The notes under the pieces are model-generated. The model saw nothing but the letters and a program-made list of their open reading frames with translations. It made no database searches and was not told the origin of the DNA. Made by a program: the position numbers and the translations under genes. From assembly GCF_018398935.1 (NCBI RefSeq), contig NZ_CP074694.1:6000001-6032000 (forward strand): DNA of 32,000 nt, read 5' to 3'. Within the stretch, counting starts at the first letter, position 1; every line of letters starts with the position of its first letter. Below, piece by piece: positions 301 to 30,469 of this stretch. Source of the DNA: Telmatocola sphagniphila. GTDB taxonomy: Bacteria; Planctomycetota; Planctomycetia; Gemmatales; Gemmataceae.

Positions 301-584
301 AATGGAGCCAACGCGCGGTCGGACGGGATCTGACTCACTCGTCCGCTAAGAATTGAGTCCCGGCCAATTATCTCGCGCCCGGCCCGAAAATATTTGAATT
401 TTTCACTTCGTCATCAGGTGCCCCCAATTCGATCCCTTTTCTCGCATTCCTTCCCTCTCACGACTCGCTCATCAACCGCCGTTTTATCAGAGTGACTGAA
501 GAGAATTTTCTCAATTTGATTGAGTTCCGCTGATGGCATCAAAGAAATTATGCCGCAGTAGAAAAGCCGGATATTTTTGGCCTC

Positions 585-599
585 TGGCGCACCAGTTGC
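585..599 (+). promoter_or_regulatory. Candidate sigma-54 (-24/-12) promoter for the polysaccharide operon
   Basis: TGGCGCACCAGTTGC matches the consensus TGGCAC-N5-TTGC at 9 of 10 specified positions, with the invariant GG and GC at correct spacing. It lies about 100 bp upstream of an in-frame GTG (706) of the first operon gene. A sigma-54 activator gene is adjacent to the operon. Confidence 0.45.
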
Positions 600-705
600 G
601 ATTAGTAGCTCATCGAGATCAGGAAAATTCATCGCAATTATAGGGGATCTTAAAGTGGCAGCAGTCTTACTCGATGCGGAACCCATCGCAACAGTTAAAG
701 CCCCC

Positions 706-1350
706 GTGCGACGGCCGATTCCAGAAGCCGGTTTGGCCGTAGGGCGACTCTATACCATCGCAAAGCGAACGACCGACATCGTGGTTGCTCTCGGTGCGAT
801 CATCGCTCTGGCCCCTCTGGGCTTCGTGGTGGCACTGCTTATCAAGCTGACCGACATGGGACCGGTTTTCTTCGTCCAGAAGCGAATCGGCAAAGACGGT
901 AAAGCCTTCTCCTTCATCAAGTTCCGCTCGATGATCGTGAATGCCGATCAGTTGAAAATGACCTTGAGCAAGCATAGCCATCACGGGGACAGTATCACCT
1001 TCAAAATGAAACGCGACCCCCGGATTACCTGGATTGGTTCGATAATTCGCAAAACGAGCATTGACGAACTGCCACAACTGTTCAATGTTTTAACTGGCGA
1101 GATGAGTCTGGTAGGTCCGCGACCCGCCGTGCCTTCAGAGGTGGCCCGCTACGAACCCCGCCATAAGGGTCGTCTGGCCGTGCAGCCGGGTATCACTTGC
1201 ATCTGGCAGGTTCGGGGACGAGGCGACATCCCCTTCGAACAACAGGTCAAGATGGACTTGGAATACATCAACCGTCGGTCCTGGTGGTACGACCTGATAC
1301 TGATGGTGGAAACGGTTCCCGCAGTTTTAACCGGCCGTGGCGCTTACTAA
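706..1350 (+). CDS. Polyprenyl-phosphate sugar-phosphate transferase (bacterial sugar transferase family, small WbaP/EpsL-like form); priming enzyme
   Basis: Single TM helix ([25 protein letters not shown]), then family motifs [62 protein letters not shown] and PGITCIWQV. The stop at 1350 is firm. The start is uncertain: the ORF track uses TTG 577; in-frame GTGs at 655 and 706 lie downstream of the sigma-54 motif. Confidence 0.9.
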
Positions 1351-1381
1351 TACACTCGATCTTCATCAGGAGTTTACGACC

Positions 1382-2251
1382 ATGCAAATGACCATGATCA
1401 CCCCTAGCTACGGTCCCGATTTCGATCGTTGCAAGATGTTAGTCAACAGCGTAAACAAATACGTTCCCGATACTGTCGAACACGTTCTACTGGTGGATCA
1501 GCGAGACGAGGCTCAGTTCCAGAAGCTGGCCAGCTCGCGAACCCGGGTGATGACCGTCGAATCGGTTCTGCCCTGGTGGATCATGCGGCTGCCGATGGCT
1601 CGACGCTGGTGGTTCAGCTTCAAGTCGATGCCGGTCCGCAACTGGATCTTGCAACAAGTGGTGAAACTGGGTGTGGGCGAACACATCGAATCGGCCAACT
1701 ACATGTTCGTCGATTCGGATGTATCCTTCATCCGGCCGATGAACCTGGGCGAATTTACCGACGAGCAGGGTAAGCTGGTGCTCTACCGCAACCCGACCAT
1801 GGGCCGCACGGACATGCATGCCCCCTGGCACATGACCGCCGCGAAGCTGCTCGGTTTCTTCCCTTGCGATTATTTCGGGGCCAACTACATCGGCAATCTG
1901 ATCACCTGGCGCCGCGACAATCTTCTCATGCTGTACAAGCACATTGAGACGATGACTGGCATGGGGTGGATGGAAGCGATCTGCCGACAGTGGCACCTGT
2001 CCGAATATATTCTCTACGGTGTCTTCGTCGAGCACGTCCTCAACGGTCGCGGTCACTTCTTCGAGAAGTCGAACCATTGTGCCGTCAGCTGGGGTCGGGA
2101 AATTCACACCGAAGAAGGAATGGAAGGCTTCCTCTCCTCTGTCGAACCCGAACAGTGCGCGGTGATGGTTTCCTCGAAGCAGTATATTCCGGTCAGCTTC
2201 TACTCCGATAAGCTCAAGCGATTCGAGCAAGTCTCCAGCCAGATTCGGTGA
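1382..2251 (+). CDS. Uncharacterised GT-A-like (nucleotide-diphospho-sugar transferase-like) protein
   Basis: Starts MQMTMITPSYGPDFDRC, as expected for a GT-A first strand. DSD (FVDSDVSF) is a DxD-like motif. AGGAG lies 9 nt upstream of ATG 1382 (the track start, GTG 1337, overlaps the previous gene). The gene sits inside the glycan operon. I could not assign a family without an HMM search. Confidence 0.6.
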   Translation: MQMTMITPSYGPDFDRCKMLVNSVNKYVPDTVEHVLLVDQRDEAQFQKLASSRTRVMTVESVLPWWIMRLPMARRWWFSFKSMPVRNWILQQVVKLGVGEHIESANYMFVDSDVSFIRPMNLGEFTDEQGKLVLYRNPTMGRTDMHAPWHMTAAKLLGFFPCDYFGANYIGNLITWRRDNLLMLYKHIETMTGMGWMEAICRQWHLSEYILYGVFVEHVLNGRGHFFEKSNHCAVSWGREIHTEEGMEGFLSSVEPEQCAVMVSSKQYIPVSFYSDKLKRFEQVSSQIR

Positions 2252-2255
2252 GACT

Positions 2256-3692
2256 GTGTTTCAGATCTTTTCGTTGATGATTGTGATCGGGATCCTCAGC
2301 CTGGCTTCCCGATTCGGCGCCCAGAAAGCCCTTCTCTATGCCTGGCCGCCCGCCATGCTTTTGCTGCCGGTCTGGATGATCATGGAAGTCGGGTCTCTGA
2401 CACTCGACTTAAGAACCGTAGCCGAAGTGACCATCCTCGTTTCCTTTCTTCTATTCCCGGAAGAAGCTCCGCGTCTCAAAGTCAATTTCTGCGATCTGGC
2501 CGTGCTGTTTCTCTTAGGCGTTCAGGTCGTTTCGCAGTTTCATGCCGGTTCCATCGGACCCCTGACGGTTCCGGAAATCGCCCGCAAATGGCTTCTTCCC
2601 TACCTGATGGGCCGGCTCTTTTTCCGCAGTGAAAAAGACCTGACAACCGTGCTGAATATGCTCTGTCCGATGCTGGTCGTGCTCACCGCTCTGACCGTTT
2701 TCGAATGCTTCGTGAAAATCAATCCGATCAATAAAGCCCTGGGGATGAGCTTCGGCTTGCTGGAAGAAGGGGAGGGCTATCGCTGGGGCATGAAAAGAGC
2801 GCACGTCACCTTCAATCACCCGATTTTCTTCGGGATGATGCTGGTGCTGATGCTGCCCTGGTCGCTGGAAGCAGGCCGGAGGGCCAAAACGGGGGAAGGG
2901 CCGCGCTGGTGGCGGCATATGCCCAAACTTTTAGGCCTCTCTCTATTCTGCTGCGTCTCGCGCGGTCCCCAGCTGGCTGGCATGTTCACGGCGGTTGCCT
3001 ATTTCTTCTTCCGGACGCCAAAAGCCCGCATACCGATGATATGTTCGGCCTGTGCCTTAATTTTCCTGCTGCAGGCGAATAAGGACGTCATCGTCGAATT
3101 GCTCGGCAAAGCGGCGGGCGAAACTCAGGATGAGAAAAAGATGATCGACATCGACGGCGAGGAGTACGAGTACAGCGGAACGACGCATCGAATGCTGCTG
3201 TTTAAGGTTTACGACAAATCGATTCAGGCCGCGGGATTCTTCGGATTCGGCACCGAGATGAAAGGTGTGGTGGTAGATGAAGAACTGCAGCAGACGTTCG
3301 GTTCAATTGATTGTCATTACTTAATGTTCCTGCTGCAGCATGGCTGGTTCGGCGTCGGGGCCTTTGTGATTCTCATGTTGGCGGTTGTTATCAAATTGGG
3401 TCGCCGCGCGTTGCAAATTGAGAAACCGGGATCGGCTTTAGCGGCGGGACTCGCCGGAGCTATGGCCGGAGTCGCAATGTTGCTAGTATCTGTGTGGTTT
3501 TCCGTTGATTTTGCGGGTGTTTGGATTTTTTCGGCCGGATTGGCCAGCGGTTTGCAATTCCCTCCTTCAACAGGAATGAAAGTGGTTCGAAGTGTAATCA
3601 CTCCACGGAAAAAGCAAACTAAGATTGAGGCGAAGCCGAGACGGTATCTCACTCCTCCTCGGCCAATCGAAAGAGACACACACCATGCGTAA
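2256..3692 (+). CDS. O-antigen ligase/polymerase family membrane protein (Wzy-like)
   Basis: About 10 or more hydrophobic helices. Wzy_C-type motifs are present: RAHVTFNHPIFFGMMLVLMLPW, SRGPQLAGMF, AGFFGFGTE and HYLMFLLQHGWFGVGAF. GTG start at 2256, with an alternative ATG at 2277. Confidence 0.8.
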   Translation: MFQIFSLMIVIGILSLASRFGAQKALLYAWPPAMLLLPVWMIMEVGSLTLDLRTVAEVTILVSFLLFPEEAPRLKVNFCDLAVLFLLGVQVVSQFHAGSIGPLTVPEIARKWLLPYLMGRLFFRSEKDLTTVLNMLCPMLVVLTALTVFECFVKINPINKALGMSFGLLEEGEGYRWGMKRAHVTFNHPIFFGMMLVLMLPWSLEAGRRAKTGEGPRWWRHMPKLLGLSLFCCVSRGPQLAGMFTAVAYFFFRTPKARIPMICSACALIFLLQANKDVIVELLGKAAGETQDEKKMIDIDGEEYEYSGTTHRMLLFKVYDKSIQAAGFFGFGTEMKGVVVDEELQQTFGSIDCHYLMFLLQHGWFGVGAFVILMLAVVIKLGRRALQIEKPGSALAAGLAGAMAGVAMLLVSVWFSVDFAGVWIFSAGLASGLQFPPSTGMKVVRSVITPRKKQTKIEAKPRRYLTPPRPIERDTHHA

Positions 3693-4680
3693 CATCAACT
3701 CCCCGAAGATTCTGATCATCAGTCCCGTGAAGGACGAAGCGGAATACCTCGAACGGACGATCAAGTCGATGGCCGCGCAGACTCTTCTGCCCGCTCGCTG
3801 GATCATCGTCAATGATGGCAGCAAAGACAGCACGGGAACGATTGCGGAAACCGCCGCTCGCGAACATGGCTGGATTCGCGTGCTGCATCGCGAAAAAGGC
3901 CCCCGCCGCGTGGGGCCCGGTGTCATCGAAGCTTTCTACGCCGGCCTGGAAACGGTGGATCTCAACGATTTCGATTATGTCTGTAAACTGGATGGGGACA
4001 TTGAATTTCAGCCCGGCTACTTCGAAGAAATGATTAGCCGGTTCGAAGCGGACCCCCGACTGGGCACCGCCAGCGGCAAATGCTTCATCCCGGTCAATGG
4101 CGAATTCGTCTACGAGCGAACCGGTGATGAGTTCTCTCACGGGGTGGCCAAGCTGTTCCGCCGCGAGTGCTTCCAGGAAATTGGCGGCTTCGTTCGCGAA
4201 GTGATGTGGGATGGCATCGATTGCCATCGCTGCCGGATGCTCGGTTGGAAAGCCGTCAGCTATCAGGACGAAGATTTGCGAATCATTCACCTGCGTTTGA
4301 TGGGTTCCTCGCAGAAAAGCGTTTTCCACGGCCGGATGCGATGGGGCCGCGGCCAGTACTTCATGGGCACCCATCCTCTGTACCTGCTGGGGATCGCCTG
4401 CTACCGAATGCTCGAACGTCCCTGGATTCTCGGCGGCATGTGCATCCTGTTCGGTTACCTGAAAGCAGCTCTCACCAGCCATCGACAATACGGCGACGCC
4501 GAATTCAAACGCCATCTGCACGCCTGGCAGTTGCGTAAGCTGTTCGCTCCGGTGTTGCGAAGGATTCGCCCGGCGACCGCTGCCATCGCCCTGAAAACGG
4601 TTACTCCGGCGTCAGTCAAAAAACCGGCCGCTTCCACGACTATCAAACAGAACGTTGTCCGCGAACTCGAACTGGTATAA
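3685..4680 (+). CDS. Family 2 glycosyltransferase
   Basis: ILIISPVKDEAEYLERTIKSMAAQTLLPARWIIVNDGSKDST is a classic GT2 N-terminus. KLDGD is the DxD-type motif. There is a C-terminal membrane-associated segment. ATG 3685 overlaps the upstream stop by 8 nt; the track start at 3625 is probably an extension. Confidence 0.9.
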   Translation: MRNINSPKILIISPVKDEAEYLERTIKSMAAQTLLPARWIIVNDGSKDSTGTIAETAAREHGWIRVLHREKGPRRVGPGVIEAFYAGLETVDLNDFDYVCKLDGDIEFQPGYFEEMISRFEADPRLGTASGKCFIPVNGEFVYERTGDEFSHGVAKLFRRECFQEIGGFVREVMWDGIDCHRCRMLGWKAVSYQDEDLRIIHLRLMGSSQKSVFHGRMRWGRGQYFMGTHPLYLLGIACYRMLERPWILGGMCILFGYLKAALTSHRQYGDAEFKRHLHAWQLRKLFAPVLRRIRPATAAIALKTVTPASVKKPAASTTIKQNVVRELELV

Positions 4681-6042
4681 ATGAACGCACTCGTCACCCC
4701 CCCGACTGTTCGCAGTGTACCGTCCCTGAAGATTCGCACTGCGGAAAAGAAACTCTGGAGCGGCATCCGCTGGTCGGCGGCCGCTCAAATTGCTACCATG
4801 TTCGTCCGACTCGGTAGCACCTTGATCCTCACCCGACTCCTCCTGCCCGAAGCATACGGCTTGTTCGGTACGATGATGGTTGTCATGACCACCGTCGAGC
4901 TCCTCTCTGACATCGGAATGCTCCCTGCACTCCTCAGACATCCGCAGGGTGATCAGCCACGATGGCTGCTCGTGGGTTGGTGGATCGGGTTTTTTCGTTC
5001 CGCAGGGATAGCCGCGGTTCTGGTAATGGCGGCCTATCCCATGTCTATGTTCTACGGCCGGCCGGAACTGTTCGGACTGATGGCCGTGGTTTCGCTGCGT
5101 CCTTTCCTCCTGGGCATGCGCAGCCCGGCCATGGTCTTGTTCCGCCGCAAGATGGATTACCGGGCTCTGTTCATCGACGAATTTACACAAACAGTCGTCG
5201 GTGTCGGCGTCAGCGTGCTGCTGGCCTGGAAGATTCAAAGCATCGGAGCCTGGGCTCTGGTGGTGGGAACGATCGCCGGGGCTCTCTCCGGATTAGTGGT
5301 CTCCTACATTCTGGCCCCGTTTCGCGTTCGCTGGCTCTGGGACTGGACCGTCGCCCACGAACTGGGCGGGTTCGGACGAATGGTGTTCCTCAATACTTTG
5401 GTGATGGCCTTCTGGCTGGGGTTGGATCGCTTCGTCGGACCCTGGTTCGTCAGCTTCGAAGCGATGGGTTTTTACATTGTCGCCATGAATCTGGCAGCCG
5501 TGGCCGAAGGGCTCCTCACCCGCGCCACCGATGTCTATTTCTCGTCCATTTTGCAATCTCCGAACGAAGCGGAACGGGCCCTACGGCATCAGAACTATGT
5601 CAATAAGCTCTGCAGGATCGGGATGCCCTTGGGGTGTCTGGCGGCCTTGTCGGCCCCGCTCGCCGTGGCCATTCTTTACAAGCCGAACTTCGCCGAATGC
5701 GGATTGATTCTGGCCGTCTTGCTCGCGCGACTACTGCCGCGGGCTCTGGGCCAGCTCGATTTCCAAATGCTCCTGGTTCGGGGTACGCTGCGGCCCTCCA
5801 TCAGCGCCTATCTCCTCGGCGGTGTGGTGCATGGGGCCATGATCCCGCTGATGATGCACTGGCTGGGAACGGTGGGGTTGGCCATGTCCTGCCTGCTTTC
5901 GACGGTTGTGGTCACCTTCGTGCAGAATCATTATTCGGGCTTGGATGATGGGAAGGGCAGCCGACGCTTGATGCTCTCCGTTCTCTGGGGAGCCTGGGGA
6001 ATTGCCGGAGCAGCCGGGCTGGCAGTGCTGCTGATTCGCTAA
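4681..6042 (+). CDS. Polysaccharide/oligosaccharide flippase (Wzx, MOP superfamily)
   Basis: The N-terminal Polysacc_synt-like segment is WSAAAQIATMFVRLGSTLILTRLLLPEAYGLFG. About 12-14 TM helices. The ATG directly abuts the GT2 stop codon. Confidence 0.85.
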   Translation: MNALVTPPTVRSVPSLKIRTAEKKLWSGIRWSAAAQIATMFVRLGSTLILTRLLLPEAYGLFGTMMVVMTTVELLSDIGMLPALLRHPQGDQPRWLLVGWWIGFFRSAGIAAVLVMAAYPMSMFYGRPELFGLMAVVSLRPFLLGMRSPAMVLFRRKMDYRALFIDEFTQTVVGVGVSVLLAWKIQSIGAWALVVGTIAGALSGLVVSYILAPFRVRWLWDWTVAHELGGFGRMVFLNTLVMAFWLGLDRFVGPWFVSFEAMGFYIVAMNLAAVAEGLLTRATDVYFSSILQSPNEAERALRHQNYVNKLCRIGMPLGCLAALSAPLAVAILYKPNFAECGLILAVLLARLLPRALGQLDFQMLLVRGTLRPSISAYLLGGVVHGAMIPLMMHWLGTVGLAMSCLLSTVVVTFVQNHYSGLDDGKGSRRLMLSVLWGAWGIAGAAGLAVLLIR

Positions 6043-7529
6043 CTGACTCCGACGATTTTGGAATCGCCGGAGAAGATATCGAGATCGATATCGTAGCGTT
6101 TGATCTTCCGATAGATGGTCGCCTGGCTAAGGCCGATCATCGACGCGGCGTCCCGCACATTACCCCGCGTCTGCCGCAAAGCTTCTTCGATCGCCTGCTT
6201 TTCCACTTGATCGACCAGCCGCATTCCGTCCTTGCCCGAGGGCGAGGGGAGAGTGAATTCGAACTGCGACGAAGTGTTCACACAGGGTTCGACCGGCTCG
6301 GCGAATTCCACGTGAGCGTTCGAAGGGGGCCGTTTGACGTCCAGTTTCTCCGAAAGCACTTCCTCCTGCAGCATATCGGGACCGACTTCCCCGGTGGGGC
6401 TGAGAATCGCCATTCGTTCGACGAGGTTTTCCAATTGCCGAACATTGCCCGGCCAATCGTAGGAACTCATGGCGGTCAGCGTTTCCTGTCGGAAATGCAG
6501 ATCGACGCGACCGTAACTGAGCGCGGCACGCTGGAGGAAGCGGGCGGCCAGTTGCGGAATATCTTCTTTGCGTTGCCGCAGCGGTGGAACGCGAATGGGC
6601 ACCACGTTCAGGCGATAGTAAAGGTCTTCGCGGAATTGCCCTTCGCGGACCCGTTCGAGGAGATTTCGATTGGTTGCTGCGATGACCCGAACATCGACCT
6701 GCACCCGTTTGGGACTGCCGACGCGCTGCACAGTGCGTTCTTGAAGGAAGCGCAGAATTTTGGCCTGCAGAACGACATCCATTTCGCCGATTTCATCGAG
6801 AAATAAAGTGCCGTTATCGGCCAGTTCGCAACTCCCCGCCTGCGATTTGTCGGCCCCGGTGAAGGCCCCTTTTTCGTGGCCAAAAAGTAAGCTCTCGGCC
6901 AGGTCGCGCGGCAGAGCGGCCATGTTGATTGGTACGAAGGGGCCGCTGGCTCGACGACTGAGTTCATGGACGCTCTTGGCGACCAGTTCTTTGCCGGTAC
7001 CGCTCTCGCCCAGAATGAGGACCGAGGCATCGGTCTGGGCCACACTGCGAATCAACCCGACGACCTGTTGCATGGCCGGGCTGTCGCCGAGGAGTTTGAT
7101 GCCGGTCGGGGCGGTTTGAACGTACTCTTCCAGTTCCTGGATGCGGCGATTCATCGCCTGCTTTTCGACGGCGTGCTTGATCGAGACTTTCAGTCGATTC
7201 AGATCGGGTGGCTTGGTCAGAAAATCGTAAGCCCCCAGTTTCATGGCCGCGACGGCGGTATCGATCGAGCCGTGCGCGGTCAGCAGGGCCACCATCAGAT
7301 CGGGGGCCAGTTGAAGTAGCTGCGGGAGCAATTCCAGGCCGTCGGTGGTTCCGAAACGCAAATCCAACAGCAGGAGGGTGGGCTTATAGTTCGAGAGTAA
7401 AGCCAAAAGGGTACGTTTGTCGTTGGCAATTACAGTGCTGTACCCCCAGCCTTCAATATGACGTGCCAGTAACACCGTGACATCGGTGTCATCATCGGCG
7501 ATCATGACCAGGGGAGTCGTGGGTTTCAT
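6039..7529 (-). CDS. Sigma-54-dependent response regulator (REC + AAA+ + Fis-type HTH; NtrC/AtoC/PrsR-like)
   Basis: REC domain: VMIADDDTD, LLLLDLRFGTTDG, TAHGS, KLGAYDFLTKP. AAA+ domain: GESGTGKELVAKSVH, GAFTGA loop (HEKGAFTGA), DEIGEM, RVIAATNRNL, FREDLYYRL. HTH: NVRDAASMIGLSQATIYRKIKRY. The start is taken at ATG 7529 (MKPTTPLVMIADDD); the track start at 7700 adds 57 non-domain residues. Confidence 0.93.
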   Translation of the reverse strand: MKPTTPLVMIADDDTDVTVLLARHIEGWGYSTVIANDKRTLLALLSNYKPTLLLLDLRFGTTDGLELLPQLLQLAPDLMVALLTAHGSIDTAVAAMKLGAYDFLTKPPDLNRLKVSIKHAVEKQAMNRRIQELEEYVQTAPTGIKLLGDSPAMQQVVGLIRSVAQTDASVLILGESGTGKELVAKSVHELSRRASGPFVPINMAALPRDLAESLLFGHEKGAFTGADKSQAGSCELADNGTLFLDEIGEMDVVLQAKILRFLQERTVQRVGSPKRVQVDVRVIAATNRNLLERVREGQFREDLYYRLNVVPIRVPPLRQRKEDIPQLAARFLQRAALSYGRVDLHFRQETLTAMSSYDWPGNVRQLENLVERMAILSPTGEVGPDMLQEEVLSEKLDVKRPPSNAHVEFAEPVEPCVNTSSQFEFTLPSPSGKDGMRLVDQVEKQAIEEALRQTRGNVRDAASMIGLSQATIYRKIKRYDIDLDIFSGDSKIVGVS

Positions 7530-7712
7530 TAATTCGCCAGCTGCAATGAATCGATCTGCCGGAACCCAAGGGGGGTACGGTAGCTCGATTCCGAGATTAC
7601 TACACAGCAAGCTTAACTTTTGTTTGAGCCCCGTGCCGAAAAAATGGCATTTTTTCAGATAAGAGCAGAATTGGTAGCGGAAGGAGTGGGATTTTCCCAT
7701 CTAAAAGGAGAC

Positions 7713-21540: not shown

Positions 21541-22290
21541 TCACATCAGGGATTCGATATCCTGGGCCGTCAATTCGTGAATGAACGTGCAACCGATGAT
21601 CCAACCATCATCGGTTTTTTCGCCTAGATAGACGCAGCAAGCCAGAATATTGACGAGCCGATCCTTGGAGGATCGCCGCAACTCCAATTTTAAAGCGGTC
21701 CCGGGTTGGACCGGTGCCTCGACGATCAAACCCACTCCCGAAGGCGAGATATTGGTGATCTTGCCCAGGCCGGCAAACAGGCCATCCGAGGGGACTTTCT
21801 GGAAGCGCACTTCGCCCTGGGTGTTGTAGCGTCGCCAGGCTCGTTTATCGCCCGCTTCCGTACGCACCTTCTTGGCGCCAAACTGTTGCAGATCCTGATC
21901 GTCCAATTCAGCAGAGAAGGTGCAGCCGTGGCTGTACATCCCGCCCGACAGAGGCACGGCATGCATCACGCAGGCAAGAGCCACCACGGAGTCGCCGCAC
22001 AGGCTTTTGGGAAGATCGATGCAGACCAGGCTACCTTCGTCCAGCGCGCGGTTCAATTGCAGCTTCACCCCGCCTCGGGATAGGTCGCAGATCTCCGCCG
22101 GCATATTTTCCGAGTTTGGGACGGCGAAACGACAATGCGTTTTGACCCGCATCTCGTAGCGCGGATGAGCGCGTCGATCATCCAGCGAGATGTCTTCGGC
22201 TGAATCCGTCCACTTATGTATCAGACTTTTCGTGCGTTCGAACATTAGAAGGATTCCAAGGGCTAAATGATCTAAAATGTAATCTAGCAC
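21541..22290 (-). CDS. Tandem PilZ-domain protein (putative c-di-GMP receptor)
   Basis: Domain 1: RRAHPR ... DLSRGG. Domain 2: KRAWRR ... NISPSG. These match the RxxxR and D/NxSxxG PilZ motifs. The start is either GTG 22290 or ATG 22245. Confidence 0.85.
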   Translation of the reverse strand: MLDYILDHLALGILLMFERTKSLIHKWTDSAEDISLDDRRAHPRYEMRVKTHCRFAVPNSENMPAEICDLSRGGVKLQLNRALDEGSLVCIDLPKSLCGDSVVALACVMHAVPLSGGMYSHGCTFSAELDDQDLQQFGAKKVRTEAGDKRAWRRYNTQGEVRFQKVPSDGLFAGLGKITNISPSGVGLIVEAPVQPGTALKLELRRSSKDRLVNILACCVYLGEKTDDGWIIGCTFIHELTAQDIESLM

Positions 22291-22510: not shown

Positions 22511-23677
22511 TCATTTTCGAAGCAAATCGGCATAAACCGAGAAGCTTTTCAGCCGTGACTCGTCGTTGACGAAGCCCAGATAATAGGGAAAAAATTGGAG
22601 CTCGAGATTGTTTCCCAGGGCCTCAAAACCGGCCTGGCGCAGATTGACTTTGTTCAAACGCAGAATCATGGCCAGGGCGATATCCCGATACTGAACGTGA
22701 TAGACGGTTTGCCGAAGATTAATGGTACTGCATTCTTCCTGCTTCATCAGAAACTTCTCGAGCTGTTCCACGTTCTTCAGCGAACCAAATTTTCCGATCA
22801 CCGTCATGGCTTCCGCAGCGGTGTCCGTCAGGTTTTGATGCTTCCTGAGATATTCGGCGGCGAAATTCAAAGCCTCCCGGAGATCGTTCTCGCGGGCAAA
22901 GTAAAAAGCGGAGGAAAGCTCGGAGGAATCGGCGTCGTCTTTCAGAGATTCCATCCAACCAAGTAGGACTTTGTGGTAAAGCGGCCGCTGATTTCGATTG
23001 GCCAGCGCCCTCTGAAACACGATATCGTTGATGAGGTAGATCGAATTGAGTTGATCGGGCTCTTTCCGCAGTTCAACGCGAACATCTTCCAGAGAGCAGA
23101 CGAAAACCCAGAAAGCAATTTCAATGGCATCGAAAGAAAGAGTCTCTTTCCGACCCGAGCCGCGCGGCTGAGGATCCTCATTTGCTCTCTCGCGTTCTGT
23201 GGTAATCTCGGACTGCCGGGAGCTGCAATAATTTGCCAGCTTTTGCGAATCCTTCCCGATGAGCAGGGCCGCATTCGGTACGCGCCGCAGCATTTGGGCG
23301 TAGAACTGCCGAGTATCCGGAGTGTCCCCCGTCCGCTGGCAGAAGATGTCCCAACCCGGGACTTTCGCTTGAGATTTACCGGTTGGCTCCTGGAGAAAAG
23401 CGTCCAGACGAAGATTCAGATCCTGTTGGCGGACCCGCGGCAGAAGTTCCCGGCAACGCTCCCGAACTTCCGCTTCGGGATGGTGCGCCCCCTGTTCGAG
23501 GGCCTGCAGTGCCGAAGATCCCAAAGACAATAATTCCCGGGAGGCGGACTCCCGAACGCGAAACGAGCGACTTTCGAATTGCCGAACCAATTCCAACGCC
23601 CGTTCCCTCTGTTTGGTGCTTTCCGAGGGAGTGTCGTCGGGCAATGCGAAAGCAAAAAGTAGACAAAGCGACAGCAA
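22511..23677 (-). CDS. Hypothetical secreted protein (helical repeat-like)
   Basis: TTG start, with AGGAGG 7 nt upstream. Hydrophobic N-terminus LSLCLLFAFAL. No family motif recognised. Confidence 0.7.
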   Translation of the reverse strand: MLSLCLLFAFALPDDTPSESTKQRERALELVRQFESRSFRVRESASRELLSLGSSALQALEQGAHHPEAEVRERCRELLPRVRQQDLNLRLDAFLQEPTGKSQAKVPGWDIFCQRTGDTPDTRQFYAQMLRRVPNAALLIGKDSQKLANYCSSRQSEITTERERANEDPQPRGSGRKETLSFDAIEIAFWVFVCSLEDVRVELRKEPDQLNSIYLINDIVFQRALANRNQRPLYHKVLLGWMESLKDDADSSELSSAFYFARENDLREALNFAAEYLRKHQNLTDTAAEAMTVIGKFGSLKNVEQLEKFLMKQEECSTINLRQTVYHVQYRDIALAMILRLNKVNLRQAGFEALGNNLELQFFPYYLGFVNDESRLKSFSVYADLLRK

Positions 23678-23822: not shown

Positions 23823-26800
23823 TCAAGTCCAATCGCAAATCCGCTCGATGTAATCGGCGCTGCCTTCCCGAAGCCAGCCGTCCAGTTGAGCCTGATCCTT
23901 CAATTGCTGGCCGCGCATGCGGGGCACAACCAGGAACCCGCAGTCCAGATCGGTGAGCGCAGTCATGTCGCCCCAGAGTTTTTCGAACTGGCAGACCGGG
24001 AAAATATCCTCCTGTCCGTGGCCCCAGCGTTTCTTCACATCCTTCAAGGTGATGTAAGTTGGCATTCGCCCGGCCAGTCGATGCACGGCCTCGGCGACTT
24101 TGGTTTCGTTTTCCAGGTCGCTTCTGTGCAGTCCGAACACTTCCAGCAGTTGATCGATAGTTGCCCAGGTCGTTAGCGTGTTGTAGTAGAGCAGTTTGAA
24201 TTCATCTTCCTGCCGGGGAAGCGCCAGCCCTTCCACAATGCGAGTCCGACCATCGATTCTCGCCAAGCCGCCGCCGCGGTCGTCGATGCGCTTGCTGATC
24301 ACTTCGTAGCTCAGCGTTTTGCCCGTTTCGATATGCGTGCCGAGCAGACCCGCGTCCAGATTGGCACCCAGCGTATCGATATTGTGAATCAGGAGGTACT
24401 TCAACTGCGACGACTTGCGGAGAGCATCGCGCAATACGCCGTTGCGAAGCATATTGGGAATTTCGAACCAGTGACCGACCGGATGCAGACACTGCATCGG
24501 CAGATTGTCGGTGTAGTCGTTCGCTTCGCCGACGCTGCGGGCCCAGTTGATTAAAGCCGCCTGGATGCTTTCGCGCATCTTCTGTTTTTGTTCGTCCAGC
24601 TGCTGGTGAGCCACTTCCTCCCAGGCGAATCGCAAATCGCGGACCATGGGAACCATTCGAAGGCCGACGCTGCGACCGGTCGAGAGCATCACCTCGCCGG
24701 AATAGTTGTAGTTGCCGACCTGCTGCAGATACTGTTGAATCGGCGCGTGAGTCATGTAACCGGTGGTGAAGACGACGGGAGCGGCTGGCCCGAAGAGCTT
24801 GGCCGATTTACGGGCTTTCGCCAGATGCACTTCCAGGAAGGTGCGATGCCGGCTGGCCAGTTTGCAGAAGGGATGCAAAGCTTTGACGACGCCAGCACCC
24901 TGCGTCCAACGGCTGCCGGCTCCGGCGGCGAGTGTGACGGTTAAAACTTCGCCGCGTTCCAGAGCTTGCCGGCCGAGTTTCTGCCGGTGTTCACTCAGGG
25001 AGCCGCGCGTGTCGATGATGTCTCTGGGGCTGACGTCTTCAATTGAGGAGGTCGAGGAAAGACGATTTTGTGCCAGACCGATCAAGCCCCGGCGGAGATC
25101 GGTCCGGATTCGCTCGTGCTGCTCCCGATCGAAGCCGAATTTCGTCAGCAGATCTTCGAGTTTGTTCGAATCGATGCTCTTCTTTTCTTCCTTGGGGAGC
25201 AGTCTCTCAAATAGAGTCTCGATCACCCCGGCCATGGCAGTTTCAGATCGGCAGGCCGCGCCCATTCGGGTCAGTTCGTCGCGCCGCAACGGCGACATGC
25301 GGCGAATATCCTGCTTCAACCAGAGCGGGGCACAGAGAGCATAATAACCGGGGGAAAGAAGTGCTTGGGCGCCTTCCAGCAGTTCCGCATGAGTACCGTT
25401 CGGATTGATGCGGAAGTCGTAAACGACCGGGTCCATGGCAAAAGGCAGCGAGTGCACCAACTCGCGGCGCAGCTTAGACATTTCTTCCTGAAGAATTGCC
25501 TGCGCATCGACCTTGCGGCTGGGATCGACGATGAAGCCCATGCCGCCACCCGACATGCCGCCGAGCATCCAGAAGCCCCAGAACTGACTTTTCAAACGTC
25601 CTTCGATGCGGGAGATCAAAGTTTCCGTGAAGTAGTTGCTGGCCCAGGGAATGATCTGTTGAATCGGTTCGCGGAAGTTTTTCGTGGTGGCTTTGGCGAG
25701 ATCCTGAATCCGGCCCTGACGCAGCGAATCGACGATGTGATCGAATAAGCCCAGAGCATTCTGCCGGGCAGTCCATTCCTTTTCGCCGCGCAGCAGATAT
25801 TTTTCGGTGACCATTTCCAGAATGGGGCCGACGTTCTGAGCCATGCCGCCGTGGACCAGCACCAGACTGTCCTGGAGTTGTTGACGAGTCAGTTGCGGGA
25901 CCGTTCGCTCACCCATGACGGTGTGTTGAGGGAGCAAGCGGCCGCGGCTGATTCCGAATTCCGGATCGCCTTCGACTGCGAAAGTCCCTTCGATCTTCTT
26001 GATACCGGGCCAGACACCGCCGGAGTCCTGCCAGCCGCCACCTGAACCGCCGATCCATTCTCCCAGAATGGCGCGAGCCGCCACTAATCGCCGTTCGCTC
26101 TCTTCGAGAGGACCGGTCAAAGACCGGGCTTGCCGGGTTGCCCGCATACACACCGCAATTACGCCAGCGAGGAGATTGGTTGAAACCGCCAGTCGGGAGC
26201 CCTTGGGGATGTTGTTCACCTGGCTGACGATTTCCAGACCGCGCCCCGGCCCGACCAGATGCGCCAAGAGGTCGGTGAGCTTTTGCTCCGAACCTTCCAG
26301 GCCCGGCGGCACGATGCCGGAAGAGATCACCCCGGCTTTCAGGAGCCCGGTGTAATCTTTGGCGAAGTTAAAAACTTCGGAGAGTTCGGTAATGTCGGCA
26401 CTGGAATCGAGATCGACCGAGACCAGTCGCAGCACTGGTTCGTCGATCACGCGCAGGTAAACTTCGATAGGCGGTTTGGGTTCGGCATCCCGGCCATGCA
26501 CACCCAGATCGATGGAGACGTTCAGGACCTTCGCCCCTTCGGGATAATCCATGCCGAGAAAGAAGATGTCACTCCAGCAGGAGTGGGTCAGATCCATGCG
26601 AACGGGGGTACGTTCGCGAAGAATCGGATAGGGCGAAGAAGCGGAGGGCCGTTCTAACAGTTCGGGTCGGATGCGCAAACAGTGGTCGGCCGGGTGGCCC
26701 ATGCGGAACATCCAGCGATTTCCCGGTACGCTGCGTACGCTTTTGCGAACCTGCCCGGCCAGAGTTTGAAAGGCCAGGGCGTAATAACCAGCGCCGAGCG

Positions 26801-27140
26801 CGCTGCTGAGACCATCGGATAATCCATCCGATTTTTGCAGTTCCTGAAATGCGTGAATCGCTTCCTCGAAGCGCCGGGACAGCAACTTGTCGTAGCCGGC
26901 GAAGGGAATGCGGCCATCCGGCTTGATTTCTTTGCGGGCCGGCAGCAGGAAGCGGTGGATTGCGTAGAGGAAAAAGAGAGCCCGAACCCGATCATAAAGG
27001 TTATCGGAGTTCCGTCGAAACAGTTCGAGATCGGCGCATTCCTCGAGCAATTGAGTATAGCTCAGCGGGGTGCAGGCCGATTCGAGAGAGCTATTCCGAA
27101 CCTTGGGGTTGGTGGAAGTGATGAGTTGGCGGAGTTTCAT
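23823..27140 (-). CDS. Fusion protein: unknown N-terminal domain + GHMP (fucokinase-like) sugar kinase + UDPGP-family nucleotidyl-sugar pyrophosphorylase
   Basis: Kinase part (about aa 300-545): PKGSRLAVSTNLLAGVIAVCMRA (motif II-like), GGSGGGWQD, MLGGMSGGGMGFIVDP (motif III-like). Pyrophosphorylase part (about aa 660-1085): LAAGAGSRWTQGAG, LLIHNIDTLGA, KRIDDRGGGLARIDG, which are typical UGPase/UAP-type motifs. Confidence 0.85.
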   Translation of the reverse strand: MKLRQLITSTNPKVRNSSLESACTPLSYTQLLEECADLELFRRNSDNLYDRVRALFFLYAIHRFLLPARKEIKPDGRIPFAGYDKLLSRRFEEAIHAFQELQKSDGLSDGLSSALGAGYYALAFQTLAGQVRKSVRSVPGNRWMFRMGHPADHCLRIRPELLERPSASSPYPILRERTPVRMDLTHSCWSDIFFLGMDYPEGAKVLNVSIDLGVHGRDAEPKPPIEVYLRVIDEPVLRLVSVDLDSSADITELSEVFNFAKDYTGLLKAGVISSGIVPPGLEGSEQKLTDLLAHLVGPGRGLEIVSQVNNIPKGSRLAVSTNLLAGVIAVCMRATRQARSLTGPLEESERRLVAARAILGEWIGGSGGGWQDSGGVWPGIKKIEGTFAVEGDPEFGISRGRLLPQHTVMGERTVPQLTRQQLQDSLVLVHGGMAQNVGPILEMVTEKYLLRGEKEWTARQNALGLFDHIVDSLRQGRIQDLAKATTKNFREPIQQIIPWASNYFTETLISRIEGRLKSQFWGFWMLGGMSGGGMGFIVDPSRKVDAQAILQEEMSKLRRELVHSLPFAMDPVVYDFRINPNGTHAELLEGAQALLSPGYYALCAPLWLKQDIRRMSPLRRDELTRMGAACRSETAMAGVIETLFERLLPKEEKKSIDSNKLEDLLTKFGFDREQHERIRTDLRRGLIGLAQNRLSSTSSIEDVSPRDIIDTRGSLSEHRQKLGRQALERGEVLTVTLAAGAGSRWTQGAGVVKALHPFCKLASRHRTFLEVHLAKARKSAKLFGPAAPVVFTTGYMTHAPIQQYLQQVGNYNYSGEVMLSTGRSVGLRMVPMVRDLRFAWEEVAHQQLDEQKQKMRESIQAALINWARSVGEANDYTDNLPMQCLHPVGHWFEIPNMLRNGVLRDALRKSSQLKYLLIHNIDTLGANLDAGLLGTHIETGKTLSYEVISKRIDDRGGGLARIDGRTRIVEGLALPRQEDEFKLLYYNTLTTWATIDQLLEVFGLHRSDLENETKVAEAVHRLAGRMPTYITLKDVKKRWGHGQEDIFPVCQFEKLWGDMTALTDLDCGFLVVPRMRGQQLKDQAQLDGWLREGSADYIERICDWT

Positions 27141-27150
27141 AGGGATTGCT

Positions 27151-27996
27151 TCAGCCGCCTCGCTGGGCCAGGAGTTCCACTAATTGGGTCAGCACGTTTT
27201 CCCGGTCAGCTCCTTCCAGAGCCAGAGCCAGTTGGGCGTTGAGCAAACCGTATTTGACGCCCAGGTTATAGCGTCGGCCTTTCATTTCCATGGCCAGGAA
27301 CCGCTCCTGTTCCACCAGTTCAGCCAGAATGGGGGAGAGCGAAGGCGTCTGGCCGGGCGGTAGATCCGTCAGCTTTTTCTCGAGCAGTTGCATCACGACC
27401 GGCGTAAGAACATGCATCCCGAAGAGGCAGAGATAGTAGCCCGCTCGCAGACCGGGCACGAGCAGAGATTGCTCGGCTTCGCTGGGGGTCGGTTTTTCGA
27501 GAACGTTTTCGATTTCGTAGAGATCGTTCAGGCCGGGCACGCGGCGGGCCGCCACCGTGCCATAGAAAGGCAGCATATTCTCGCGAGTCGGTTGCACGGC
27601 CGAGACGCTGCAGGCTTCGCGCTTGGCCACTTCCACGAGTTGCTGGGCTGAGCGAAGTTTCCCCTGCGACGTGTAGACATGATCGCCGACCAGATGCAGG
27701 AAGGGCTGATTATCGGTGAATTTTTTGGCCTGAAACAGAGCGTGAGCATAGCCGCGTGGCTCGACCTGTTCGACGAAATGCAGCTGTGGTCCGTAGGGCC
27801 CGGCCGCCTCCAGGTAAGCGGTCTGATCTCCCGGCGCGACGATGACGCAGACTTCTTCGATATCGCAGCGGATGGCTTCCTCCACGATAATTTCGAGGGC
27901 TTTCTTCTCCACACCGTCGCGATCAACGAGGGTTTGGAGAGGGATCGTGCGTTGGGATCGCCCGGCGGCAGTGATGACGGCTTTGCGAATATTCAT
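27151..27996 (-). CDS. GalU-like sugar-1-phosphate nucleotidyltransferase (divergent)
   Basis: KAVITAAGRSQRTIPLQ aligns with GalU KAVIPVAGLGTRMLPAT, but GxGTR is replaced by GRSQR. LEKPTPSEAEQSL (VEKP motif) and a GalU-type C-terminal dimerisation region are present. It lies 10 nt upstream of the fusion gene. Confidence 0.8.
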   Translation of the reverse strand: MNIRKAVITAAGRSQRTIPLQTLVDRDGVEKKALEIIVEEAIRCDIEEVCVIVAPGDQTAYLEAAGPYGPQLHFVEQVEPRGYAHALFQAKKFTDNQPFLHLVGDHVYTSQGKLRSAQQLVEVAKREACSVSAVQPTRENMLPFYGTVAARRVPGLNDLYEIENVLEKPTPSEAEQSLLVPGLRAGYYLCLFGMHVLTPVVMQLLEKKLTDLPPGQTPSLSPILAELVEQERFLAMEMKGRRYNLGVKYGLLNAQLALALEGADRENVLTQLVELLAQRGG

Positions 27997-28111: not shown

Positions 28112-28483
28112 TCAGGCCGGTACGATAAATTGGTTTACAATCGTTAGAAGATCGGCCTGATCGAACGGCTTGTAAAGTATGGCGGCTGCCCCAAAATGCC
28201 GGGCCGCCGAGAGCAAATCCATTTCGCCGTTAAAACCGCCACCGCTAATGGCGATCACTTTTACGGATTCATATTCCGCCGTGAGGGAGCGAATGACTTC
28301 CAGCCCATCCTTCTCTGGCATGAAGACGTCGCAGATGATCAGTTCCGCTGGGTTCTCGCGGTAGCGTTTCAGCGCTTCATGGCCATCTTCCGCTTCCTCG
28401 ATTTCGTAGCCGGTGGGCGCGAGCATGCGCCGCATCGTGGTGCGAAGCATTGGTTCGTCGTCGACAATCAAAATTCTAGGCAT
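28112..28483 (-). CDS. Single-domain response regulator (CheY-like receiver)
   Basis: ILIVDDEP, ELIICDVFMPEKDG, VIAISG and LYKPF are canonical receiver residues. ATG 28483 is preferred over TTG 28519. Confidence 0.9.
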   Translation of the reverse strand: MPRILIVDDEPMLRTTMRRMLAPTGYEIEEAEDGHEALKRYRENPAELIICDVFMPEKDGLEVIRSLTAEYESVKVIAISGGGFNGEMDLLSAARHFGAAAILYKPFDQADLLTIVNQFIVPA

Positions 28484-28803
28484 GGTCTGCTCGAGAGTAT
28501 CACATAAATTTAGGTTCAAGATAAAGCTCAGTATAAGAATCGGATTAAAATCAGCCCAAAGAGTAGCGATTTCGATCCGGATGCACCAATCCTGACGGCT
28601 GGATTGATAATCTCAGATTGAGAATACTCCCTCGAATATTAAGTACAGCAAATCTCGATCCAATTGAAAATGAGGGGGTCTTTACGGAATTTTAACGGCT
28701 CCATTCTCACTCTTGACGCCTTCTGAATGTCAATTTGATTACCATTCTCAATCAGAGATATTTTGCGCATTCGCCAGAGCGTAACTTTCGTCCGGAGCAG
28801 GAA

Positions 28804-29025: not shown

Positions 29026-29059
29026 AATTTTTGGTGAATTATTCCCTTATCCTCGAGAT

Positions 29060-30469
29060 GTGATGGTCGAGAAAGAGCTGTACTTCGTCATCCCCACTTA
29101 TCGCCTTCGCGATGTCGGCGAAACGATTCGCGAATACGACGAGCATTTTCGCCGCAACGGGCACACCGTTCGGCTCATCGTCTTCGACGATTCCAGCCGA
29201 CCGACGCAGGAAAAGTATTTTTCCCATCTGGAGTCGGTGAAGACCCACAACGAACTTTACTACGTCGGCCCCGCGGAAAAAGACCAGTTCCAGAGCTATC
29301 TCGGCGAGCGGTTGCGCGATAAGCGACTCGACGGATTGGTGAAAAATCTCTTTCGACCCAGCTACGGCGGAAATCGTAACTACACCCTGATGTATACGCT
29401 GGGGGGCCTCGTCGTCAGTTCGGATGACGACATGCGTCCCTACGCCCTGATGGAAGACAGTCCGGAATCCTTGGGAGAGCATGAAATCGGCCGTGGCAAG
29501 CTCTATCCGGTCAACGCCCAAGGGTACACCCGAAAATCGTTCGATATTCTTTCCTCCTTTCTCGATGTGCTTGGCAAGCCGGTTGCCGATCTGCCTCACA
29601 ACTACGAACGGGGCGAACTCCTGGTCGACACGGCCATGGATCTGGAAACCAATGCCACGCGCGGCCTGTCGCGTGAAAACTCCCTGGTTTTGCGCTCGGG
29701 AACGATAGCGGATAGTGCCGTGGTGAAAATGGCTCAGACCTTTCGATCCGGTACCAACGACATCGACGCATTGGATTTCGTCGATCTGTTTCTGACCAAC
29801 GAAGAGCAAATCGATCCCGATGCATTGAATGAACTCTATGTGCTGGTCAATTTTCGCGCGGCGGTCACCAAACTGAACTGGCGCATGGACTGCGGTGTGG
29901 CGGGGTATGACAATTCCTTTGGTTTGCCGCCGTTTTTTCCCACCCGTTTGCGCTTTGAAGACTACATCTACCGGCTCTGGATCCAGCAGCCCGGTCTGGC
30001 GGCGGCCCACGTCGATGCGGCCCAGAATCACATCAAGAACAACTACATGCGGAACCCGCCGGCGGCGGAGATCTTCAACGAAGAAGTTTCGAACCTGTTG
30101 AAGACCAAGATTCGCACCACTCTTTCGAAGATCGATGAGTTGAGTATCTCGTTCGATTACGAAGGGGAAGTCACTTCGCGGGATGCCGACGAGATCCTCA
30201 CCAAAATCTCCGAGTTGCATTCCCGTTCCTTGGCCGCCGCCGAACGCACTGTGAATCCGGCACGGGCCGAGGCATTGCGAGTGTTCGCGGCCAATCTGCA
30301 AAAGGTCTTTTACGGTTTCGAACCCGATTTTTTCCAGCAGAATCTGCTGCGTATCGTGGACGACGTGGTCTCGGGGATAAAAGGATCGATTGAACTTTGG
30401 CCCACTCTGGTGGAAATCTGTTACTTTCAAAAGGGCCGCAAAGGATTAGCCCAAAAAAGAATCAACTGA
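29060..30469 (+). CDS. Uncharacterised GT-A-like protein (putative glycosyltransferase)
   Basis: YFVIPTYRL ... RLIVFDDSS ... PSYGGNRNYTL ... VVSSDDDMRP: a Rossmann-like start with acidic DxD-type motifs. The 463-aa antisense ORF is a shadow. The start is GTG 29060 or ATG 29063. Confidence 0.6.
   Translation: MMVEKELYFVIPTYRLRDVGETIREYDEHFRRNGHTVRLIVFDDSSRPTQEKYFSHLESVKTHNELYYVGPAEKDQFQSYLGERLRDKRLDGLVKNLFRPSYGGNRNYTLMYTLGGLVVSSDDDMRPYALMEDSPESLGEHEIGRGKLYPVNAQGYTRKSFDILSSFLDVLGKPVADLPHNYERGELLVDTAMDLETNATRGLSRENSLVLRSGTIADSAVVKMAQTFRSGTNDIDALDFVDLFLTNEEQIDPDALNELYVLVNFRAAVTKLNWRMDCGVAGYDNSFGLPPFFPTRLRFEDYIYRLWIQQPGLAAAHVDAAQNHIKNNYMRNPPAAEIFNEEVSNLLKTKIRTTLSKIDELSISFDYEGEVTSRDADEILTKISELHSRSLAAAERTVNPARAEALRVFAANLQKVFYGFEPDFFQQNLLRIVDDVVSGIKGSIELWPTLVEICYFQKGRKGLAQKRIN

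Follow-up and report, generated by a model that had tools for sequence, protein, structure and literature searches.

Characterised precedents for a sugar kinase and a pyrophosphorylase in one polypeptide are Fkp of Bacteroides fragilis, an L-fucokinase/GDP-L-fucose pyrophosphorylase (PMC11982464; PDB 9iit, 9iip and 5yys; NCBIfam PRK13412), and zebrafish DrGKUP, a glucuronokinase and putative UDP-GlcA pyrophosphorylase (PMC3938481). The salvage logic of plants and animals, in which a sugar-1-kinase precedes a UDPGP-family UDP-sugar pyrophosphorylase, has been reviewed (PMC6329318); there, separate anomeric GHMP kinases are used (GALK2 with AGX1; plant GlcAK, AraK and GalAK with the UDP-sugar pyrophosphorylase USP). 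Here we analysed a stretch of 32,000 nucleotides (nt) of the Telmatocola sphagniphila genome (contig NZ_CP074694.1, positions 6,000,001 to 6,032,000; hereafter the window), in which two adjacent genes encode a GalU-like protein of 281 amino acids (aa) and a protein of 1105 aa that fuses a fucokinase-type GHMP kinase domain to a UDPGP-family nucleotidyltransferase domain. We read the pair as a one-chain anomeric sugar kinase and nucleoside diphosphate sugar (NDP-sugar) pyrophosphorylase with an obligate GalU-family partner, and consider the chances of this reading evenly balanced. The two genes are:

27151..27996, minus strand: gene of the GalU-family nucleotidyltransferase partner (281 aa, ATG start), identified by Pfam, NCBIfam and PDB matches and by linkage
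23823..27140, minus strand: fusion gene (1105 aa plus stop, ATG start), with full-length homologues

Both open reading frames (ORFs) lie where the initial annotation had placed them, 10 nt apart (TGA AGCAATCCCT ATG); a GAGG lies inside the very end of the upstream gene, just ahead of its stop codon. They are real genes rather than chance ORFs, since thousands of full-length homologues exist, and an assembly artefact or a chance adjacency is ruled out by thousands of collinear homologues. Generic promoter and terminator scans of the region gave counts not above those expected from shuffled sequence (promoters, 2 with 1.9 expected; terminators, 8 with 6.3 expected).

Domain architecture of the fusion protein

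The 1105-aa chain is divided into three parts:

26625..27140, minus strand: N-terminal all-helical domain, aa 1-172 (AlphaFold2 model; no known relative)
25371..26624, minus strand: fucokinase-type GHMP kinase domain, aa ~173-590 (NCBIfam, phmmer and Foldseek)
23826..25370, minus strand: helical linker and UDPGP-family nucleotidyltransferase, aa 591-1105, the nucleotidyltransferase covering aa ~640-1105 and its catalytic fold beginning at ~aa 660

The motifs quoted in the initial annotation were all located in the protein (GGSGGGWQD at aa 364-372, MLGGMSGGGMGF at aa 525-536, NIDTLGA at aa 920-926 and DDRGGGL at aa 953-959), and its assignment of the middle module to the fucokinase-type GHMP kinases is borne out by hidden Markov model, sequence and structure searches alike. 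Positions 611-953 of PRK13412, the fucokinase part of the Fkp model, align to aa 175-555 (E=4e-16), whereas the whole protein scores only 57.9 bits against a cut-off of 721, the kinase part alone matching. A search of PDB sequences returned UDP-glucose pyrophosphorylases (UGPases) at aa ~880-1013 (E=1e-7) and, by phmmer, the Fkp kinase domain 9iip at aa ~173-386. The whole chain was modelled with AlphaFold2 from a 48-sequence alignment (mean per-residue confidence, pLDDT, 78.8; predicted TM-score, pTM, 0.80), and this pTM suggests a fixed inter-domain arrangement. Foldseek comparison of the model with the PDB retrieved full-length Fkp (9iit, E=4e-17), the kinase part of Fkp (9iip, TM-score, TMt, 0.81, E=3.7e-16), the heptokinase WcbL (4usm, TMt 0.80) and UGPase, UAP1 and AGX structures (2icx, 9swy, 1jv1 and 4r7p; ~445 aligned columns, TMt 0.5-0.58, E down to 7e-13). 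The stretches modelled with low confidence are glycine-rich active-site loops (aa 190-198, 366-374, 527-532 and 741-746) and a conserved insertion at aa 825-890.

The residues of the kinase module were mapped through the Fkp structure paper (PMC11982464) and the phmmer alignment, and conservation was taken from 48 database homologues and 75 genome-locus sequences of near homologues of the fusion, here called the core clade. The segments concerned are:

26547..26615, minus strand: sugar and anomeric-hydroxyl binding segment ERTPVRMDLTHSCWSDIFFLGMD with R181, W189 and D191, aligned to Fkp, invariant
26172..26210, minus strand: phosphate loop of GHMP motif II, IPKGSRLAVSTNL, where Arg316 takes the place of the signature Gly, aligned to Fkp IPAGSGLGTSS 710-720
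26016..26066, minus strand: LGEWIGGSGGGWQDSGG with E361, Q371 and the general base D372, aligned to Fkp, invariant
25533..25568, minus strand: GHMP motif III MLGGMSGGGMGF, invariant in the core clade

By this alignment R181, W189 and D191 correspond to Fkp R592, W599 and D601, and E361, Q371 and D372 to Fkp E751, Q761 and D762. The Fkp-mapped residues are invariant in 48/48 database homologues and 75/75 genome-locus sequences, GGGWQD is retained in divergent relatives too, and the glycine-rich motif III is present as an invariant LGGMSGGGMGF (aa 526-536). Both the kinase fold and the catalytic Arg and Asp of Fkp are found in the middle module. Conservation across the 75 sequences peaks in the kinase domain, where 43-44% of the columns are invariant compared to 21-34% elsewhere in the protein, which argues against a decaying pseudoenzyme. 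The phosphate loop is the part that differs. Motif II, canonically P-x-x-x-G-L-x-S-S-A, is in register with Fkp 711-720, yet it reads PKGSRLAVST, so that G713-S-G-L-G-T-S-S720 of Fkp becomes G314-S-R-L-A-V-S-T321, with S320 corresponding to Fkp S719. R316 is invariant in the core clade; divergent relatives carry Gly at this position (GSGLAVST), as does Fkp. Pfam GHMP models find no match in the fusion even at E<=5, because the signature Gly is replaced by the invariant Arg316. Since the divergent relatives keep the Gly and one of them (P0152) passes Pfam GHMP_kinases_N, alignment places the module among the GHMP kinases by descent, with Arg316 as a derived feature of the core clade. The initial annotation had overlooked this non-canonical loop, with its Gly changed to an invariant Arg, and the kinase activity is a prediction from sequence.

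The C-terminal part was correctly assigned to the UDPGP family. UDPGP (PF01704) is the only Pfam family matched by the 1105-aa protein (aa 887-1004, 35.8 bits against a cut-off of 22), and the catalytic residues are present in the following segments:

24882..24932, minus strand: UDPGP nucleotide-binding loop LAAGAGSRWTQGAGVVK with G740, G742, R744 and K753, invariant by alignment
24363..24485, minus strand: UDPGP core from HPVGHW (H890) to HNIDTLGA (D922), aligned to yeast Ugp1p
23895..23921, minus strand: RMRGQQLKD with K1081, the putative C-terminal catalytic Lys, aligned to the relative P0152

The loop LAAGAGSRW...VVK753 is invariant and recognisable in relatives as GG(x)G(T/S)R...K. HPVGHW and HNIDTLGA align with PPGHGD and SNGDNLGA of yeast Ugp1p; G889, H890 and D922 are invariant, as are E970 and N987. 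RMRGQQLKD aligns with RRKRFFPIK of P0152, whose own UDPGP match has E=1e-23, and contains the invariant K1081, which we take to be the equivalent of the "PVK" lysine of UGPases. The C-terminal beta-helix, which is typical of the UDPGP family without defining it, is missing, because the chain ends 24 residues after K1081; the model shows none either. The conserved insertion of ~65 aa in the UDPGP fold (aa 825-890, ~24471-24668, minus strand; RDLRFAWEE...DYTDN...) was modelled with a pLDDT below 50; over the parts that align, UGPases have nothing equivalent to it.

For the N-terminus, the initial annotation had proposed an unassigned part of about 300 aa. It is in fact ~172 aa long, because the GHMP domain begins at ~aa 173 (nt ~26624) rather than at ~aa 300, and aa 173-300 form the kinase N-lobe with the sugar-binding Arg, Trp and Asp. 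Modelled alone with AlphaFold2, aa 1-172 fold into a confident all-helical structure (pLDDT 87.4), for which Foldseek found only generic helical bundles in the PDB (best E=0.8, not significant) and Pfam at E<=5 only a hint of TPR (E=0.11). The domain is kept in divergent relatives.

Compared with Fkp, the fusion likewise joins a GHMP anomeric kinase to a sugar-1-phosphate nucleotidyltransferase in one chain; the two kinase domains are homologues with the same active-site residues (Arg/Trp/Asp/Glu/Gln/Asp) and the same GGGWQD motif, and each is preceded by a helical subdomain. In contrast, the domain order is opposite and the pyrophosphorylase is of the UDPGP type instead of the alpha/beta fold with left-handed beta-helix of Fkp, two differences that the initial annotation had already pointed out. 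Furthermore, an Arg stands at the position of Fkp Gly715, an obligate GalU-like partner gene is present, and the 172-aa helical domain has no detectable similarity to the Fkp linker. As the order is reversed, the pyrophosphorylase fold different and the PRK13412 score far below the cut-off, the fusion is a functional analogue of Fkp and not a member of the Fkp family. With UGPase, UAP1/AGX1 and USP it shares the catalytic fold, the core motifs and the kinase-then-UDPGP logic, but both steps are placed in one polypeptide, the C-terminal beta-helix/oligomerisation domain is lacking, the ~65-aa insertion (825-890) is added and the VKGG lysine is replaced by Arg. DrGKUP, too, is a naturally occurring protein that links a GHMP sugar-1-kinase to a UDP-sugar nucleotidyltransferase; however, it carries a short bacterial-type NTP_transferase at the N-terminus and the kinase at the C-terminus, and is an animal protein without a UDPGP domain.

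The GalU-like partner and its linkage to the fusion

The fusion is widespread. At least 8000 homologous proteins were found, and the 120 best matches all cover the full length, with 65-85% identity. In the databases they are named "hypothetical", "UTP--glucose-1-phosphate uridylyltransferase" or "galactokinase/mevalonate kinase-like predicted kinase", the second of these names being domain-based only. A scan of species-representative genomes yielded at least 599 confirmed fusion loci, in Planctomycetota, Verrucomicrobiota (including Akkermansiaceae), Kiritimatiellae, Chloroflexota, Armatimonadota, Acidobacteriota, Myxococcota and Rhodothermaceae. When 75 sequences were compared in pairs, identities ranged from 59-99%, with a mean of ~70% within and ~65% between phyla; the family is thus very flat and strongly constrained. 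Some horizontal transfer is likely: one Myxococcota sequence, for example, is 85% identical to one from Verrucomicrobiota.

The initial annotation had treated the two genes as a pair, and this arrangement is conserved across phyla. Of the 76 loci that extend far enough upstream, 72 have the GalU-like gene as the immediate upstream neighbour of the fusion. Conversely, when metagenomes were scanned with the GalU-like protein, the fusion was the next gene downstream in 31/35 informative loci, including a lineage at just 41% and 52% identity; in a 44%-identical relative the partner and fusion genes overlap. The pair is kept together in bacteria of at least eight phyla. Fusion genes without the upstream GalU-like gene were seen at L012, L023, L044 (labelled as a metagenome-assembled genome, MAG, of Akkermansia muciniphila) and L061, and GalU-like genes without a downstream fusion at L100, L116, L119 and L130. 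All-versus-all clustering of the ORFs of 80 loci gave no third conserved gene.

The partner protein matches Pfam NTP_transferase (E=4.6e-11), and its best solved relatives are YngB and GalU (residues 71-269). The NCBIfam model of galU (TIGR01099) scores 84.5 bits against a cut-off of 326.8 and matches aa 71-254 only; that of GalF (TIGR01105) scores 18.3 bits against 659.2. Two segments characterise the protein:

27934..27972, minus strand: remodelled NTP-binding loop TAAGRSQRTIPLQ (canonical GalU: AAGLGTRFLPATK), compared in 54 orthologues
27484..27504, minus strand: VLEKPTP, a GalU-type sugar-phosphate-binding EKP motif that aligns with VEKP of YngB

The signature GRSQR, noted before as an altered GxGTR loop, is located at aa 12-16. 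It belongs to a remodelled loop with an invariant Gln, AAG-x-x-Q-R-x-L-P-L-Q-T, in which A10, A11, Q15, P19 and Q21 are invariant among the 54 orthologues, R16 is kept in 45/54, position 13 is mostly basic and position 14 is variable. The changed residues Q15 and Q21 are themselves invariant, a sign that selection acts on them and that they do not drift. In the sugar-phosphate half, which in GalU has the pattern Q...G(L/Y)GHA, GD, VEKP and RYDxG, the GalU-type residues Q77, G82, D105, R242 and G250 are invariant in the same orthologues, and E167, K168 and P169 are found in 54/54.

Catalytic/modulatory pairs of nucleotidyltransferases are represented by GalU/GalF and GlgC/GlgD, and GalF differs from GalU in the GxGTR loop. 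The 281-aa protein resembles these pairs in being GalU-like in its sugar-phosphate half with a substituted GxGTR loop. Unlike in GalU/GalF, its mate is a UDPGP-type domain within a 1105-aa fusion and not a paralogue, its Q15 and Q21 are invariant with Arg16 kept, and the scores of both the GalU and the GalF models are far below their cut-offs. By analogy to these pairs, and to Gal3p and Gal1p for the GHMP-like domain, the locus could encode a regulated UDP-glucose (or UDP-hexose) pyrophosphorylase complex in which the UDPGP domain alone is catalytic, the GHMP-like domain is a sugar or nucleotide sensor and the GalU-like protein is a non-catalytic modulatory subunit. Both accessory modules are indeed altered exactly in their phosphate-binding loops (R316 in the one, GxGTR to G-x-x-Q-R in the other), Pfam cannot detect the kinase, the strong, flat conservation and the pTM of 0.80 fit a tightly interacting regulatory assembly, and the databases already name the fusion a UGPase. 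Nevertheless, Asp372, Arg181, Glu361, Ser320 and motif III are invariant in a domain that is the best conserved of the chain, and the changed residues (R316; Q15 and Q21 of the partner) are invariant too, which resembles new specificity and not decay. Moreover, relatives with a canonical Gly loop exist, the partner retains R16 and a mostly basic position 13, and the GalF model scores 18 bits against a cut-off of 659. We consider such a sensor complex unlikely.

Predicted chemistry of the pair

From the domain identities, the conserved residues and the gene linkage described above we infer two activities, their order, the nucleotide, the sugar and any physical complex of the two proteins. In the one-chain kinase and pyrophosphorylase that we favour, the GHMP domain would use ATP to phosphorylate a free sugar at its anomeric hydroxyl, with Asp372 as the base and with Arg181 and a metal stabilising the transition state. 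The UDPGP domain would join the resulting sugar-1-phosphate to an NTP, most likely UTP, to give NDP-sugar and pyrophosphate (PPi), using the nucleotide loop 737-746, K753, H890, D922 and K1081. The N-terminal helical domain may be a structural scaffold packed on the kinase, like the Fkp helical linker. The co-translated GalU-family protein, with its sugar-phosphate half kept and its triphosphate loop remodelled, would be an obligate partner, acting either as a second nucleotidyltransferase of altered specificity or as a modulatory subunit. The initial annotation held that the substrate cannot be deduced from sequence, and we agree. The pocket keeps 5/6 of the side-chain contacts for L-fucose in Fkp (R/W/D/Q/D in common), and on this ground L-fucose-like pyranoses (L-Fuc, L-Gal or D-Ara) are a first guess for the sugar.

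Several observations weigh against this reading. In the phosphate loop the signature Gly is replaced by the invariant R316, A318 and V319 stand in place of Gly and Thr, and together with the failure of Pfam to detect a GHMP domain this means that ATP-dependent kinase activity is not assured. In the UDPGP domain, the VKGG lysine of UGPases is Arg955, and no uracil-recognising Gln could be placed, which makes UTP a guess. No consumer glycosyltransferase is linked to the pair in the 80 loci. For a simple salvage enzyme there is no obvious need of a second nucleotidyltransferase, and no obvious reason for ~65% identity between phyla. Furthermore, we know of no precedent for a UDPGP-type enzyme activating an L-fucose-like sugar.

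The presence of two nucleotidyltransferases obligatorily co-encoded with one anomeric kinase, and the strong constraint on both proteins, would be accounted for by a uridylyl-exchange assembly, a GalT-independent bypass of the Leloir pathway. The kinase would make a sugar-1-phosphate (X-1-P), one pyrophosphorylase would run backwards (UDP-Glc + PPi to Glc-1-P + UTP) and the other forwards (UTP + X-1-P to UDP-X + PPi), so that UTP and PPi would be recycled within the complex. The partner does keep the Glc-1-P half of GalU (EKP, RY(D/N)xG). The rest of the scheme is conjectural, and pyrophosphorylases are freely reversible in solution, so a special assembly would not strictly be needed. This scheme is in our view highly improbable. 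A broader proposal would see in the pair a three-active-site assembly, spread over at least eight phyla, that makes an undescribed nucleotide sugar (e.g. of the UDP-activated L-fucose or L-galactose type) or performs GalT-independent uridylyl exchange, with the UDPGP domain and the loop-remodelled GalU-like subunit recycling UTP and PPi between two sugar-1-phosphates. On both versions, the Arg substitution in the GHMP loop and the new helical domain would have arisen as adaptations to that coupled chemistry. We regard this proposal as distinctly unlikely.

No description of this fusion was found in the full-text literature, with subscription-only papers outside the coverage, and an Akkermansia transcriptome paper mentions only a generic UGPase. 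The pair is not a categorically new system; it is a good and widely distributed target for enzymology. If the favoured reading of a one-chain kinase and pyrophosphorylase is true, the fusion would be the first natural protein we could find that unites a GHMP anomeric kinase and a pyrophosphorylase of the eukaryotic (UDPGP) type, evolved independently of Fkp. It would represent a widespread but so far overlooked way of activating a sugar in groups with poorly known envelope and polysaccharide chemistry, and would correct the systematic database mis-annotation as "UTP--glucose-1-phosphate uridylyltransferase". In addition, it could provide a compact one-pot biocatalyst for nucleotide-sugar synthesis, and the invariant Gly-to-Arg change of the GHMP loop and the Thr-to-Gln change of the GalU loop are clean test cases for the tuning of phosphoryl and nucleotidyl transfer by loops.

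Divergent relatives and neighbouring genes

Divergent relatives of the fusion were collected by a search against cluster representatives. In P0142 (2318 aa, L081 87-7043) and P0157 (2939 aa), single ORFs join the helical, kinase and UDPGP module to ROK-family domains, and P0142 is additionally fused to an inositol-monophosphatase-family (IMPase) domain. These giant relatives could represent a four-step sugar-activation chain in one polypeptide. BLASTP found no GalU-like domain inside P0142 or P0157, nor in P0136. The MAG GCA_016177145.1 holds two divergent paralogues, P0147 and P0136 (L084 and L086). The former is followed by ROK and PPDK-like genes; the latter overlaps a 1857-aa protein with UDP-glucose dehydrogenase domains, which is consistent with an NDP- or UDP-sugar product, and is followed by 317- and 701-aa proteins without a Pfam match. 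P0152 (L082), with its canonical GHMP loop, is located between B12-binding radical-SAM and xylose-isomerase-like genes, at a locus that also has an adjoining GT2 gene and five further radical-SAM genes. In P0257 (L088 6001-9741, GCA_030765505.1) the order is reversed, UDPGP then kinase, which points to functional coupling of the two modules; its neighbours are 943-1288-aa proteins without a Pfam match, NUDIX, FBPase_2 and a weak NAGPA match. One more divergent relative is preceded by genes for a beta-phosphoglucomutase-type HAD hydrolase and a GmhA-like SIS protein. P0171, P0206 and P0263 look like three-way fusions, but only fragments of each protein are matched; they are probably frameshifted gene calls and were not counted as evidence. 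The varied arrangements show that kinase and UDPGP modules were joined more than once, and from its gene contexts the superfamily belongs to sugar-phosphate and nucleotide-sugar metabolism.

Some of these contexts recall the GDP/ADP-heptose pathway (GmhA, HddA/WcbL, GmhB and HddC). By such a logic the route would start from a central sugar phosphate and not from a free sugar: the GHMP domain would phosphorylate C1 of an already phosphorylated sugar, a separate phosphatase would remove the distal phosphate and the nucleotidyltransferase would then activate the sugar-1-phosphate. The kinase fold is as close to the heptose-7-phosphate kinase WcbL (TMt 0.80) as to Fkp (TMt 0.81), divergent relatives have ROK kinases and an IMPase-family domain as fusion partners or neighbours, or have SIS and HAD neighbours, among them the beta-phosphoglucomutase-type hydrolase with the GmhA-like isomerase, and the extra Arg of the phosphate loop could conceivably bind a second phosphate. 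However, none of the ROK, IMPase, HAD, SIS and UDP-glucose dehydrogenase partners accompanies the core clade in the 80 loci, where the GalU-like gene is the sole conserved neighbour, and the relatives that do have heptose-type partners carry Gly, not Arg, at position 316. Moreover, the Fkp-type fucose contacts W189 and Q371 are retained in the core clade, and the nucleotidyltransferase is of the UDPGP type. A heptose-type route thus appears quite improbable.

Around the pair itself several signalling genes are present in the window: a double-PilZ protein (21541-22290, minus strand), a HEAT-like 388-aa protein (22511-23677, minus strand) and a sigma54 activator with a receiver domain (6039-7700, minus strand), as well as a stand-alone receiver:

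28112-28519, minus strand: CheY-like receiver (Pfam)

None of the PilZ, HEAT-like, receiver and sigma54-activator genes is kept beside the pair elsewhere in the 80 loci. The initial annotation had named a CheY-like regulator and a GT-A-like protein as flanking the pair. Pfam confirms the regulator; the label of the other, a 469-aa ORF (29060-30469, plus strand), is unverified, because it has no match in Pfam, NCBIfam, PADLOC or PDB sequences. Neither is a part of the system: the response regulator was matched at 3/80 loci only, in varying positions and never in a fixed one, and the 469-aa ORF, like the HEAT and PilZ proteins, at 0/80. A 463-aa antisense ORF (29039-30430, minus strand) overlaps the 469-aa ORF almost fully and resembles a high-GC shadow ORF. 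A role of the pair in anti-phage defence was rejected on a PADLOC search without a match, and neither Rfam families nor tRNAs were found in the window. A polysaccharide-biosynthesis set is located ~18 kb from the pair (577-6042, plus strand) and comprises a Bac_transf initiating sugar transferase, DUF6492, a 478-aa ORF without a match, a GT2 glycosyltransferase and a Polysacc_synt_3 flippase; a link between these genes and the product of the pair is possible.

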